A stretch of 64,000 bases of DNA from Chloroflexota bacterium (GCA_021787985.1 JAJYLG010000009.1:141-64140); one strand, 5' to 3'; positions 16,361-23,578 are shown, numbered from the stretch's first letter. Notes: generated from the letters alone by a model not told the origin. Made by a program: numbers and translations.

Positions 16361-18958
16361 TCAGGCCGTGGCCGGCTGGGTGATGCGGAAGGTGAGCTCG
16401 CCAGAGGGCGCGGAGTCCACCACGACCGTGTCGCCGGCGCGCACCTCGCCCTGCAGCAGCTTCATCGCCAGCGGATCCTGGACCCGGCGCTGCAGCACGC
16501 GCTTCAGCGGCCGTGCGCCGAAGACCGGATCGTAGCCCTCCTCGACAACCGCGTCCTTCGCAGCCTGCGTCAGCTCGAGCGTCACGTGCCGGTCGGCCAG
16601 CAGCGCGCGCAGGCGGCGGAGCTGGATCTCGATCACCTGGTGCAGGTCGGGGCGGCCCAGCGGGCGGAAGAGGACGATCTCGTCGAGTCGGTTGAGGAAC
16701 TCGGGCCGGAACTGCCGGTGCAGCTCCTCCATGACCCGCTCACGCGCGGCGTCGGCGCCCAGCTCGCGGATCCATTGGCTGCCGACGTTGCTCGTCAGGA
16801 TGATGACCGTGTTGCGGAAGTTCACCGTGCGGCCCTGGCCATCGGTGAGCCGGCCGTCGTCCAGCACCTGCAGCAGCGCGTTGAACACCTCCGGATGGGC
16901 CTTTTCGATCTCATCGAACAGCACGACGGAGTACGGCCGGCGGCGGACCGCCTCGGTGAGCTGGCCGCCCTCCTCGTAGCCGACGTAGCCCGGCGGCGCG
17001 CCGATGAGCCGCGCGACCGTGTGCCGCTCCTGGTACTCGCTCATGTCGAGCCGCACCATCGCCGCCTCGTCGTCGAAGAGGAACTGGGCGAGCGCCCGCG
17101 CCAGCTCCGTCTTGCCGACACCCGTCGGCCCGAGGAAGAGGAACGAGCCGATCGGCCGGCTGGGGTCCTGCAACCCGGCGCGAGCGCGGCGGATGGCGTT
17201 CGCCACGGCGGCGAGCGCCTCCTCCTGGCCCACCAGCCGCTCGTGGATGCGCTCCTCCATGTGGATGAGCTTCTCCACCTCGCCCTCGATCAACTTGGAC
17301 ACCGGGATGCCGGTCCACTTGTTGACCACCTCGGCGATGTCCTCGGCGTCGACCTCCTCCTTCAGCAGGCGCTCGCCATGGGATTCGGCGGCCGAGTGTT
17401 CCTCCTGCTCGTGGAGTCGCTGCTCGAGCTCGCGCAGCGTGCCGTAGCGCAGCCGCGCGGCCGTCTCCAGGTCGGCCTGGCGCTCCGCCTGCTCGATCTG
17501 CAAGCGGACGCGCTCGATCTCCTCCTTCGTGCGCTGGACGGCCTGGATCGCCTCCTTCTCTCGCTGCCACTGCGCGTGCAGGCGCGACGAGTCCTCGCGC
17601 AGGTTGGCGATCTCCTGCTCGATCCGCGCCAGCCGCTCGCGGCTGGCGGGATCGGTCTCCTTCTTGAGCGCCTCGCGCTCGATCTCGAGCTGCATGATGC
17701 GGCGGTCGATCTCGTCCAGTTCGGCCGGCTTGGAGTCGATCTCCATGCGCAGCCGGGCGGCCGCCTCGTCGATCAGGTCGATCGCCTTGTCGGGTAGGAA
17801 GCGGTCGCTGATGTAGCGGTCGGACAGCGTGGCGGCGGCGATCACGGCCGAGTCGGTGATGCGGACGCCGTGGTGCACCTCGTAGCGCTCCTTGAGCCCG
17901 CGCAGGATGGAGATGGTGTCCTCGGCCGATGGCTCGCCGACCAGCACCGGCTGGAAGCGCCGCTCCAGCGCGGCGTCCTTCTCGACGCGCTTGCGGTACT
18001 CGTCGAGTGTGGTCGCGCCGATGAGGCGCAGCTCGCCGCGGGCCAGCATCGGCTTGAGCATGTTGCCGGCGTCCATGGCGCCCTCGGCCGCGCCCGCGCC
18101 GACGATCGTGTGCAGCTCGTCGATGAAGACCACGACGTCGTCGCGATCCTGGATCTCCTTGAGGACCGCCTTCATGCGCTCTTCGAACTCGCCACGGTAC
18201 TTGGTGCCGGCCACCATCGCGCCCATGTCGAGCTGGACGATGCGCTTCTGCTTGAGGCTCTCCGGGATGTCGCCGCGAACGATGCGCTGCGCCAGCCCCT
18301 CCACGACCGCCGTCTTGCCGACGCCCGGCTCGCCGATGAGCACCGGGTTGTTCTTGGTGCGGCGGCTCAGGATCTGGACCACCCGCCGGATCTCCTCGTC
18401 GCGCCCGATGACGGGGTCGAGCTTGCCCTGGCGGGCCAGCTCCGTCAGGTCCCGGCCGTACTTTTCCAGCGCGGCGTAGGACGATTCGGGTGACTGGCTG
18501 GTGACGCGCTGGCTGCCACGGACCTGCTGCAGCACCTGCAGCACGGTGTCGCGGGTGAGGCCGGCCTCGCGCAGCAGCCGGGCCGCTGTCCCACCGGCCT
18601 TCTCGATGATCGCAAGCAGGAGGTGCTCGGTGCTGACGTACTCGTCGCCCATCGCCTGCATCTCGTCGTGGGCGGAGACAAGGGTGTTGCGCAGGCGGTT
18701 CGAGAGGGTGATCTGGGCCGACGGTCCGTGCACGGTGGGCAGCTTCGCCAGCTCCGCCTCGACGCGGCCGGCCAGCATGCGGTCGTCCACGCCGAGCCGG
18801 CGGGCGATCTGCGGCACGACGCCGTCGGCCTGCTGGAGCAGCGCCAGCAGCAGGTGCTCCGGCTCGACCTGGCCGTGGCCGCGGTCCTGGGCGGCCTTCT
18901 GGGCGGCGAAGATCGCCTCCTGCGATTTCTCGGTGAAGCGGCTGATGTCGATGTTCAT
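16361..18958 (-). CDS. clpB: Chaperone ClpB (canonical, long coiled-coil M-domain)
   Basis: 865 aa; N-domain; two AAA+ modules ([18 protein letters not shown]); long coiled-coil middle domain; C-terminal domain. Confidence 0.9.
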
Positions 18959-19100
18959 GGCGGTACCCCTGGAGTGGCTCCAATCACAGTTTCGCGCACC
19001 TGTCGCCGCTTCCGGTACGGCTCGCGGAAGGCGGGTCGCCTGCGCGTCGCACGCGGGGAGGTCGCTCGTCGTGGCGGAGCGGCATCACGCGGACGAGGAT

Positions 19101-19775
19101 TCACGCGCCTTCCTTCGTGCCGGCGAGCCCGGCCTCCTCGCGCGTGAGCCGCCGCGCGGTGTCCGCCAACCAACCCTGCAGCGACATGTTCGCCGGCCGC
19201 CGGGCCAGCGCCTCGAAGCAGGTCGCGAGCGTGCGGGTCAACACGCGCTCGCCGATGCGCTCCACCCCGGAGCCAGCCGCTCCGGCGCGCTCCAGCTCCT
19301 TCCGGATCACGGCCGACACGGCCGGCAGCTCGTCCCACGTGAGCCGGTCGAAGGCGGCCCGGTCGCCGGCCAGCGCGCGGTCGAGCAGCTCGCGCTCCTC
19401 GATCAGCACGCGCTCGTCAGCGGCGCGCGCGGCGGGCGCCAGCCCGGCGCGGGTGCGCTCGTATCGGTGCTCGCCGCGCAGGCGGCCCATGTAGCGCTGG
19501 AGCTGCCGCTCCACGCCTTGCGCCGCCGCCAGCAGCGCGCCCTCCACCGACTCGGCGCTCCGCCGCGAGACGAGCGCGGAGTCGAGGACGAAGAGCCGCA
19601 GGACGGCCCGGTACTCCTCGCGGCGCGAGTGGCGAGACAGCTCCACCACGGCGTGGACGAGCTCCGGGTCCACGTGTTTGAGCTGCGATTCCATGTGGGC
19701 GAGGTGCCGCTCGACCAGGGCCTGGTATTCGGACGGCGCGTCCATGCGGGTGGTGCTGAGCTGATAGCGGAGCAT
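19101..19775 (-). CDS. Hypothetical protein (about 224 aa) between the S49 protease and clpB
   Basis: AGGAGG RBS 6 nt upstream of ATG (MLRYQLSTTRMDAPSEYQ...). Same strand and close spacing to neighbours. No recognizable domain. Confidence 0.5.
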   Translation of the reverse strand: MLRYQLSTTRMDAPSEYQALVERHLAHMESQLKHVDPELVHAVVELSRHSRREEYRAVLRLFVLDSALVSRRSAESVEGALLAAAQGVERQLQRYMGRLRGEHRYERTRAGLAPAARAADERVLIEERELLDRALAGDRAAFDRLTWDELPAVSAVIRKELERAGAAGSGVERIGERVLTRTLATCFEALARRPANMSLQGWLADTARRLTREEAGLAGTKEGA

Positions 19776-22883: not shown

Positions 22884-22909
22884 GGCTTGCCTCCCGAGGC
22901 GAATCCGGA

Positions 22910-23578
22910 TCAGCGAACGCGAGTGCGTTCGCCGAAGAGGAGCTGGCGAAGGTGCTCGCGGGCGCCGCGGTAGAGGCGTCGTATCTCGTCCGGTCCCTGG
23001 CCGAAGATACGGGCGACTTCGCCGAGCGGGACGCGTTCGATGGCGACCAGCGTGAAGACACGGCGCTCGAGGCCGGGAAGCAGGTGAACGATGCGCTCGT
23101 ACTCGTCGGCGAGCGATGCGGCCTCGGTCGCCTCCGCCTCGAGCGGCGGCGGGGGTGGCGGCTCATCGCTGGAGGCGTAGGCGGGCAGGAAGTACGCCCA
23201 GAACGGACGGCCGTCGGGCGTCTCGCCCTCGCCGGACGGCGGCTGCAGGCCGCGCTCGCGACGGCCGCGGCGGACCTCGCGGTCCACCTGCTTGAGGACG
23301 AGGTGTCGTAGCCAGCCCCGCAGCGTGGCGCCCTCGGGCATGTGGTTCAGGTGGAGCATGGCCAGCAGCACCGCGTCATTCACCAGGTCGGCGGGCTCGA
23401 CCTCACCGGGGCCGAGATCGCCGAGCCGCTGGTGGGCGTCCAGCTCACGGGCGGCGAAGCGGTAGAGCGAATCAAGCTGAGGCTGGATCAGGCGCTCGAA
23501 CGCCTCGCGGTCTCCGGCGCGGGCGTCGTGCAGCAGGTGGAGGTCGTCAGCAGAGTGGAGCGCCCGGCGAGCGGCCAT
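22910..23578 (-). CDS. ECF-type RNA polymerase sigma factor (sigma-70 regions 2 and 4) with an unusually long Pro-rich linker
   Basis: Region 2 DREAFERLIQPQLDSLYRFAAR...ADLVNDAVL; region 4 LPGLERRVFTLVAIERVPLGEVARIFGQGPDEIRRLYRGAREHL. Insert PSGEGETPDGRPFWAYFLPAYASSDEPPPPPP between them. Confidence 0.8.
   Translation of the reverse strand: MAARRALHSADDLHLLHDARAGDREAFERLIQPQLDSLYRFAARELDAHQRLGDLGPGEVEPADLVNDAVLLAMLHLNHMPEGATLRGWLRHLVLKQVDREVRRGRRERGLQPPSGEGETPDGRPFWAYFLPAYASSDEPPPPPPLEAEATEAASLADEYERIVHLLPGLERRVFTLVAIERVPLGEVARIFGQGPDEIRRLYRGAREHLRQLLFGERTRVR

Follow-up and report, generated by a model that had tools for sequence, protein, structure and literature searches.

An ECF sigma factor locus of a Chloroflexota bacterium encodes an anti-sigma/Balon-type fusion protein and an HPF-sigma2 chimera among protein quality-control genes

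Introduction

How does a bacterium without a sigma32-type system report failing translation or folding to its transcription machinery? To our knowledge, the route is unknown for most phyla, Chloroflexota included. The question is raised by six consecutive minus-strand genes at positions 16361-23578 of a 64,000-nucleotide stretch from a Chloroflexota bacterium (GCA_021787985.1, JAJYLG010000009.1:141-64140), which is called the window here. The genes encode an extracytoplasmic function (ECF) sigma factor, an anti-sigma/Balon-type fusion protein, a rhomboid protease, an SDH-type proteinase, an HPF-sigma2 chimera and the disaggregase ClpB. A first-pass annotation made from the sequence alone had proposed that the locus would switch on protein quality control if its anti-sigma factor senses translational distress. 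Our preferred reading, held with about even confidence, is that of a ribosome-coupled ECF sigma/anti-sigma module within a quality-control cluster, in which the anti-sigma factor joins a soluble zinc-binding anti-sigma (ZAS) domain to a Balon-type binder of the ribosomal A site.

Balon, MSMEG_1130 and Rv2629 occupy the ribosomal A site, whether the ribosome is vacant or translating, together with EF-Tu-GDP and simultaneously with RaiA, and the motifs of Balon include an HP motif at the decoding centre and an EF-Tu-binding beta-hairpin (PMC10901736). Helena-Bueno et al. 2024 (PMC10901736) list "alternative sigma70 factors" in Balon operons, along with RaiA and chaperones. Burroughs and Aravind 2019 (PMC6514570) had earlier set out the baeRF families and the HPF genes around them, and had singled out family 10 for a conserved Gln as a candidate peptidyl-tRNA hydrolase. 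Chimeras of HPF with SigE domains often lie beside Balon genes (bioRxiv 10.1101/2025.11.04.686544).

Results

Family assignments were made with Pfam and NCBIfam models scored against curated cut-offs. The second gene of the string encodes a 458-aa protein with two parts. Residues 1 to about 78 (22650-22883, minus strand) carry a complete ZAS motif, H3-x25-H29-x3-C33-x2-C36, in which HARNCLEC begins at residue 29. The AlphaFold2 (AF2) model of the protein (predicted local distance difference test score, pLDDT, 81.6) has N-terminal helices at residues 3-14, 20-32, 34-51 and 63-74. A profile built from eleven fusion-protein N-termini (A4) was compared with the PDB, and its best matches are all anti-sigma factors: RslA (3hug_B, 6e-4), RsiW (0.007), DdvA (0.024) and ChrR (0.09). 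Pfam zf-HC2 (PF13490) is matched by eight of the eleven N-termini, at best with 1.4e-9; the isolated window N-terminus falls just short of the 22.2-bit cut-off, at 22.0 bits (E 1.8e-4). By its motif and its modelled four-helix domain, the N-terminus is classed as a class-I zinc-binding anti-sigma domain, which upholds the earlier description of an eRF1-like anti-sigma protein.

The remainder of the protein (21507-22649, minus strand) matches baeRF_family10 (PF18854) with E 3e-27 and 96 bits, against a cut-off of 27.1. Its N, M and C domains are complete, and the last of them contains a CxxC...CxxC zinc ribbon. The top Foldseek match of the model is MSMEG_1130 on the Mycobacterium smegmatis 70S ribosome (8v9l_z; E 1.5e-23, TMt 0.77), followed lower down by aRF1, P. 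urativorans Balon and eRF1. The sequence profile A1 matches MSMEG_1130 (1e-31) and Rv2629 (3e-16) in the PDB. The equivalent of the GGQ loop reads GGWSV (residues 249-253), so that the catalytic Gln is absent, as in Balon. Among the best hits GGWSQ is the most frequent loop (16), GGWSA occurs in close relatives of the window protein, and a subclade without zinc ligands has no GG. Unlike baeRF family 10, whose catalytic-loop Gln in GGWSQ is conserved, the window protein has GGWSV, and peptidyl-tRNA hydrolase activity is therefore unlikely. On fold, profile and loop the body is assigned to the Balon type, with the three-domain aeRF1-like fold and no GGQ. We regard these domain identities as nearly certain, and binding of the fusion protein to ribosomes is likely.

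A hydropathy scan found no transmembrane-like or hydrophobic segment in the fusion protein, which is therefore cytoplasmic. Intramembrane cleavage of the anti-sigma factor by the neighbouring rhomboid was considered and rejected for lack of such a segment (maximum 19-residue hydropathy 1.35).

The first gene (22910-23578, minus strand) encodes a 222-aa protein with a sigma2 domain, a linker of about 50 aa and a sigma4 domain. As a single sequence it gives weak Pfam and NCBIfam matches, with Pfam and TIGR02937 scores below the curated cut-offs, and a single-sequence phmmer search of the PDB returned no matches; a family profile was required. The profile of seven sigma orthologues (A5) matches Mtb SigE (3e-13), SigW over its full length (9e-12), AlgU and RpoE in the PDB, with E values from 3e-13 to 1e-10. 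The protein is therefore assigned to the ECF (group IV) sigma-70 family as a two-domain, sigma2 plus sigma4 member with a long linker and neither sigma3 nor sigma1.1. Together with the fusion protein encoded directly behind it, it probably forms a sigma/anti-sigma pair.

The complete ZAS motif has the spacing of classical ZAS proteins, and it is found across a subclade made up of the window, L005, L023, L024, L027, P0037 and P0042. This bears on a first alternative, a redox- or zinc-sensing module like RsrA, RshA and ChrR, in which oxidation or zinc loss at H3/H29/C33/C36 frees the sigma factor and the Balon body serves independently as a hibernation factor. Among class-I anti-sigma domains, the soluble ones show an enrichment of zinc motifs and in many cases sense redox state (PMC7406223), and thioredoxin-like genes lie near some of the related loci. 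However, about half of the fusion clade has lost the His/Cys ligands (P0003-P0009, P0034, P0036, P0038) while keeping the architecture, the sigma partner and the chaperone neighbourhood, so redox sensing cannot be the conserved input. This alternative also leaves the HPF-sigma2 chimera unexplained, and we consider it unlikely.

Fusions of this kind are rare. A word-indexed search turned up 16 homologues. An exhaustive profile search of 1.84 billion representatives gave 1,051 family-10-like clusters at E < 1e-30; among the best 150 of these, six cover the anti-sigma part of the profile, and P0042 adds one, for about 7 in 150. Judged from the best 150 of the 1,051, about 95% of family-10 clusters lack the fusion. 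The named carriers are all metagenome-assembled genomes of Chloroflexota (OHK40, Roseiflexaceae, Thermoflexia). P0037 is a ZAS fusion that keeps a true GGQQ loop. In P0042 a GGWSQ body is joined to a divergent ZAS N-terminus of the Cys type (C3-x25-H29-x3-C33-x2-C36). The fusion of anti-sigma domains to family 10 may thus have had more than one origin or more than one line of divergence.

The fifth gene (19101-19775, minus strand), called hypothetical in the first-pass annotation, proved to have known domains and to offer a second ribosome-to-sigma link that had been missed. Its 224-aa product is a chimera of an HPF/RaiA domain (residues 1 to about 105) and an ECF sigma region-2 domain (about 115-221). 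The N-terminus has the beta-alpha-beta-beta-beta-alpha fold of HPF/RaiA/YfiA proteins and matches PF02482, and the AF2 model has a pLDDT of 84. The chimera family holds 15 sequences (profile A3), and its best-conserved stretch, EERELLDRALAGD, lies at the start of the sigma2 domain. Alignment of the sigma profile A5 with A3 by hhalign gave a probability of 96.9% and E 1.3e-10, and the A3 model matches sigma2 of the cognate sigma factors. By these profile comparisons the sigma2 domain of the chimera is specifically related to the sigma factor of the same string, encoded three genes upstream.

In relatives, chimera genes adjoin baeRF10 genes that lack the anti-sigma domain (L017, L018). The L019 locus (2871-5416) contains a sigma4-only open reading frame (E 4e-12 to the sigma family), a baeRF10 gene without the anti-sigma domain, a gene for a protein of about 90 aa and an HPF-sigma2 gene. 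Its baeRF10 protein keeps GGWSQ. This arrangement suggests a split-sigma layout. The protein of about 90 aa is conserved in L017 and L018 (E 1e-11) and is absent from the window. In L020, an RtcB RNA ligase gene interrupted by an intein (15903-18869) lies 6 kb from the HPF-sigma2 gene; RtcB is a reported Balon neighbour. Two candidate kinships of the chimera were rejected. A 224-aa opposite-strand open reading frame after SDH in L012 has no HMM match and is not taken as an orthologue. A tblastn search of 72,556 plasmids gave no match, so the window chimera is not the plasmid-borne SigE-HPF protein of pEc78.

The six open reading frames were read from the translation of the window, and an independent public gene call on the same metagenomic contig (ENA ERZ27233565 k141_1016587, 76.5 kb) has identical products of 222, 458, 233, 286, 224 and 865 aa. 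The third gene (20785-21486, minus strand) encodes a 233-aa rhomboid intramembrane serine protease (PF01694, E 6.6e-31) with at least four transmembrane-like segments. Its translation contains the catalytic GxSG and His motifs, as GASGAISG and AHVGG, from which the protease is apparently active. The fourth gene (19903-20763, minus strand) encodes a 286-aa SDH-type ClpP-fold serine proteinase (PF01972, E 2e-119, 398 bits; NF047768, 429 bits against a cut-off of 250), and a transmembrane-like segment at residues 1-23 forms its N-terminal membrane anchor. The sixth gene (16361-18958, minus strand) encodes an 865-aa ClpB (TIGR03346, 1382 bits against a cut-off of 1232) with Clp_N, AAA, full-length AAA_lid_9, AAA_2 and D2-small domains all present, 71% identical to ClpB of the L001 cluster. 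The two membrane proteases and the disaggregase named at the outset were thus all matched by their models.

The gaps are 26 nt from sigma to the fusion gene, 20 nt to rhomboid, 21 nt to SDH, 127 nt to the chimera and 142 nt to clpB. These figures use ATG 19775 as the start of the fifth gene, which is preceded by an AGGAGGA ribosome-binding site. Six same-strand genes, with four tightly spaced and two wider junctions, agree with what had been reported.

Does this gene order persist in relatives? Pattern-limited scans gave seven loci from GTDB genomes and five from JGI metagenomes, a small synteny sample. In nine distinct related loci (L001, L005, L007, L012, L014, L023, L024, L026, L027) the fusion gene directly follows the sigma gene, and in L016 two genes stand between them. 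Among the nine loci with usable flanks, the window included, chaperone or protease genes join the pair in eight. The order in L001 is BON, sigma, fusion, DnaK, GrpE, ClpB, DnaJ, HtrA, MerR_2, x85 (an uncharacterised 85-aa open reading frame), Hsp20 and Lon. L012, from OHK40, has this order minus dnaK-grpE-clpB, with a C-terminal remnant of ClpB left, and then Lon, rhomboid and SDH. L007 has sigma, fusion, DnaK, GrpE and, further on, HtrA, x85, a stand-alone HPF (PF02482, 3e-11), rhomboid and SDH. In L005 dnaK, grpE, dnaJ and an hspR-like gene precede sigma and fusion, and htrA follows. Shorter arrays are DnaJ, DnaK, sigma, fusion in L027 and FtsH, sigma, fusion in L024. DnaK lies 1.6 kb downstream of the fusion gene in L016. 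L014, with BON and YflT stress genes only, is the sole locus of the nine without a chaperone or protease. The rhomboid-SDH pair is found in three loci: the window, L007 and L012. The sigma/fusion pair and its quality-control neighbours thus recur in independent loci. Loss of the gene order in relatives had been named beforehand as grounds for refuting the proposal; the pair and its association with such genes recur, and that objection therefore fails to refute it.

Several of these loci show rearrangement. In L012 (11384-11596) the last 35 or so ClpB residues remain in the spacer after the fusion gene; compared with L001, the remnant is read as the scar of a dnaK-grpE-clpB deletion. The OHK40 sigma reading frame has an in-frame stop near its 5' end. 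In L025 (8939-9100) the sigma gene is missing and a PRC/BON-domain reading frame runs into the second half of the anti-sigma domain, which looks like a deletion that fused the upstream gene to the fusion protein. Proteins of about 600 aa with PRC/BON domains, sometimes duplicated, are encoded directly before the sigma gene in L001, L012, L016 and L014 of the non-zinc clade. The gaps there are 7 nt, and the genes are probably in the same operon as the sigma gene.

The neighbourhood also invites a second alternative, in which the pair is a passenger of a stress island. The genes would be co-expressed through an HspR-like MerR protein, HrcA or the housekeeping sigma factor, the sigma regulon would lie elsewhere, and the proteases and ClpB would not be targets. 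A MerR_2/HspR-like gene occurs within related clusters, the L005 pair follows dnaK-grpE-dnaJ-hspR, and neighbour content differs among loci. An inverted repeat, GCGCTAAC-N5-GTTAGCG, is conserved just upstream of dnaK or its remnant in the non-zinc clade, perfect in L007 (11396-11416) and also present in L001 and L012 (both 11393-11413). It differs from the CIRCE and HAIR consensus sequences, and the cluster's MerR_2-type regulator may use it as its operator. In the window, wide spacers precede the HPF chimera and clpB, and one of them holds a hairpin. Linkage has nevertheless survived extensive rearrangement in eight of the nine loci, and functional coupling is therefore favoured over mere co-location. 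We rate the passenger explanation as rather unlikely.

The window sequence 5' of the sigma gene adds to this comparison. An ECF-type promoter-like motif, TTCAAC (23674-23669), 15 nt and CGTTAT (23653-23648), was read directly on the minus strand at 23648-23674. The pattern TCAAC-N14-18-CGTTA has one match in the 64-kb window against 0.03 expected. This pattern was derived from the window alone, and L023, the nearest relative that has a ZAS motif, then served as its test. L023 has one match, on the correct strand and upstream of the sigma gene (0.01 expected). TCAACC and CGTTAT are common to both loci, separated by 14 nt in the window and by 16 nt in L023. The -35/-10 candidate put forward earlier therefore recurs in the closest relative, and the two loci support a putative autoregulated ECF-type promoter. 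No other promoter-like element lies ahead of the first four genes, whose gaps are 20-26 nt; co-transcription of rhomboid and SDH with sigma is therefore almost certain and counts against the passenger explanation.

Two other upstream features were borne out in part. The reported inverted repeat is present upstream of the sigma gene, as ACGTTA-N12-TAACGT at 23631-23654 enclosing TTGACA (23641-23646), and is a possible operator; the form ACGTTAG given before is a plus-strand reading. The repeat was not found conserved in relatives. The region described as AT-richer does drop in GC, but only from about 0.72 to 0.66. A CTAAC...AGCA motif upstream of dnaK (L001, L007, L012), ftsH (L024) and the window sigma gene was set aside: nine occurrences were observed against 5.6 expected, which is not significant and was a post hoc count.

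Within 15.5-25.5 kb no sigma-70-type promoters were scored, terminator-like sites occur at chance level, and Rfam families gave nothing relevant. The SDH/chimera spacer (19776-19905) folds with a minimum free energy of -61.1 kcal/mol (z -2.4; two of 200 shuffles as stable) and contains a stable GC-rich hairpin at 19829-19866 (minus strand). The hairpin has no U tract and is a possible terminator, attenuator or processing site. In the chimera leader (19776-19866, minus strand) a second predicted stem, beyond the strong hairpin, pairs UCUGG with the CCAGGAGG Shine-Dalgarno region, and it could be a thermometer-like element in a heat-shock context. RNA folding of the clpB leader gave no unusual structure.

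Further genes lie outside the six-gene string on the plus strand. Their products are DnaJ (7792-8769), a second Hsp100/Clp ATPase whose middle domain is truncated (9358-12219; 785 aa in the public call) and a second, divergent SDH-type protease (13251-14273). With these three, the proteostasis cluster extends over about 16 kb and both strands. Between the second SDH-like protease and clpB, at 14585-15306, a FitA-like RHH antitoxin is paired with a PIN-domain toxin, and a DUF72 gene comes next.

Discussion

The window protein can be placed among two kinds of known protein. Like Balon, MSMEG_1130 and Rv2629, it has a three-domain aeRF1-like fold without GGQ, and MSMEG_1130 is its best match in structure and sequence. 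As with Balon genes, its gene belongs to a stress operon with an HPF/RaiA-type gene, chaperones and an alternative sigma factor. Unlike the characterised proteins, it begins with an anti-sigma domain of about 78 aa and keeps the zinc ribbon in the C domain, and its ribosome binding is predicted. It also resembles ChrR-sigmaE (R. sphaeroides), RsrA-sigmaR, RslA-sigmaL and RsiW-sigmaW in its N-terminal class-I domain, in the H/C-x25-H-x3-C-x2-C motif and in a gene just 3' of that for the ECF sigma factor. With ChrR it shares a cytoplasmic location and a C-terminal sensor domain. Where ZAS anti-sigma factors have a cupin or a membrane/periplasmic domain at the C-terminus, it has a translation-factor mimic of about 380 aa; a further difference is that half of the fusion clade lacks zinc ligands.

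The chimera has partial parallels as well. PhyR-NepR-sigmaEcfG is a partner switch that works by sigma mimicry. A sigma-like paralogue is likewise encoded here with a sigma/anti-sigma pair and could, putatively, compete for the anti-sigma factor. In contrast to PhyR, the window mimic has sigma2 only and no sigma4, an HPF domain in place of a receiver, and no phosphorylation. SigO-RsoA of Bacillus subtilis is a two-subunit sigma factor. The L019 sigma4-only and sigma2-bearing genes that flank baeRF10 resemble such a split sigma, whereas the window has an intact sigma factor besides the chimera, so that the split-sigma reading would apply to relatives only. Like the published SigE-HPF chimeras, the window chimera joins an HPF N-terminal domain without the long-HPF dimerisation domain to a SigE-like domain. 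The preprint saw those chimeras as hibernation-factor variants and did not connect a cognate sigma/anti-sigma pair (bioRxiv 10.1101/2025.11.04.686544).

A link between ribosome state and an ECF regulon had been put forward as not described before. This is only partly true. The anti-sigma/Balon fusion was not found in the literature searched, but earlier work does report Balon operons with sigma and chaperone genes (PMC10901736) and, beside Balon genes, HPF-SigE chimeras (bioRxiv 10.1101/2025.11.04.686544). In that literature no paper was found that joins ECF sigma or anti-sigma factors with eRF1 or Balon proteins, and the supplement of Burroughs and Aravind 2019 could list the fusion. A survey of class-I anti-sigma factors (PMC7406223) mentions no such domain. 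The window protein can be seen as an ECF anti-sigma factor whose sensor moiety is new, and equally as a Balon protein with a regulatory appendage; it is not categorically new.

How might such a protein work? In the unstressed cell the anti-sigma domain would hold the sigma factor. On translation arrest the Balon-like body would dock in ribosomal A sites, as Balon and MSMEG_1130 do with EF-Tu-GDP. Docking would alter the availability of the anti-sigma domain and hence the sequestration of sigma. Freed sigma would transcribe at least its own operon, that is sigma, anti-sigma, rhomboid and the SDH protease, and possibly also the HPF chimera and clpB. The chimera would probably sit on the same ribosomes and may be a sigma2 decoy or a half-sigma. 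The architecture and the synteny strongly suggest a signalling link from ribosome to sigma, through which ribosome state may switch on quality control. Signal coupling from ribosome to sigma is given slightly less than even credence, and clpB as a sigma target is a tentative proposal that we doubt more than we trust.

Several points weigh against this proposal. The Balon-type assignment is based on fold, profile and the GGQ loop, and the HP motif and EF-Tu hairpin lie outside that basis. Ribosome binding could release sigma or sequester it, and the ZAS motif allows a redox input instead. The putative autoregulated promoter draws on two loci only. The ECF-like motif has no further copy in the 64-kb window, whether before the HPF chimera, before clpB or elsewhere, as the passenger explanation would have it; with the motif before the sigma gene only, rhomboid, SDH, the chimera and clpB are hypothetical sigma targets. 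A strong hairpin after SDH separates SDH from the fifth gene. The separate dnaK operator and the HspR-like gene of relatives make independent control of the chaperones plausible.

The direction of the signal raises a third alternative. Binding of sigma to the N-terminal domain could keep the Balon body off ribosomes or deliver it to them, so that hibernation would be timed by the availability of RNA polymerase or sigma. The architecture is symmetrical as to direction, the HPF chimera is likewise a sigma domain on a hibernation factor, and in L019 a sigma4-only gene and an HPF-sigma2 gene surround a baeRF10 gene without the anti-sigma domain. No precedent is known for a sigma factor as the allosteric ligand of a translation factor, however, and the layout of an autoregulated sigma/anti-sigma operon is typical of sigma control. 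We consider this reversal very unlikely.

The ribosome-coupled module can be extended further, in a form that we offer as speculation and think improbable. The ribosome would be the scaffold of a sigma partner switch, with the Balon-type anti-sigma factor in the A site and the chimera in the 30S decoding/mRNA channel, the two positions that Balon and RaiA fill at once on a single ribosome. The sigma2 decoy would thereby come to lie next to the anti-sigma domain and displace sigma, and quality-control genes would come on. L019-type relatives would have a split sigma tethered by HPF. With the sigma2 half held on ribosomes through HPF, the ribosome itself would then be the anti-sigma factor.

Balon-type and HPF domains are each fused to one half of a sigma/anti-sigma pair here, among genes for DnaK, ClpB, Lon, FtsH, HtrA and membrane proteases. 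The locus is a concrete candidate for a route by which ribosome occupancy would act directly on an ECF regulon. If the coupling is real, ribosome state would be a new class of input for ECF signalling, and Balon-type proteins would gain a regulatory role beyond ribosome protection. It would also account for the sigma genes and HPF-SigE chimeras that recur beside Balon genes.

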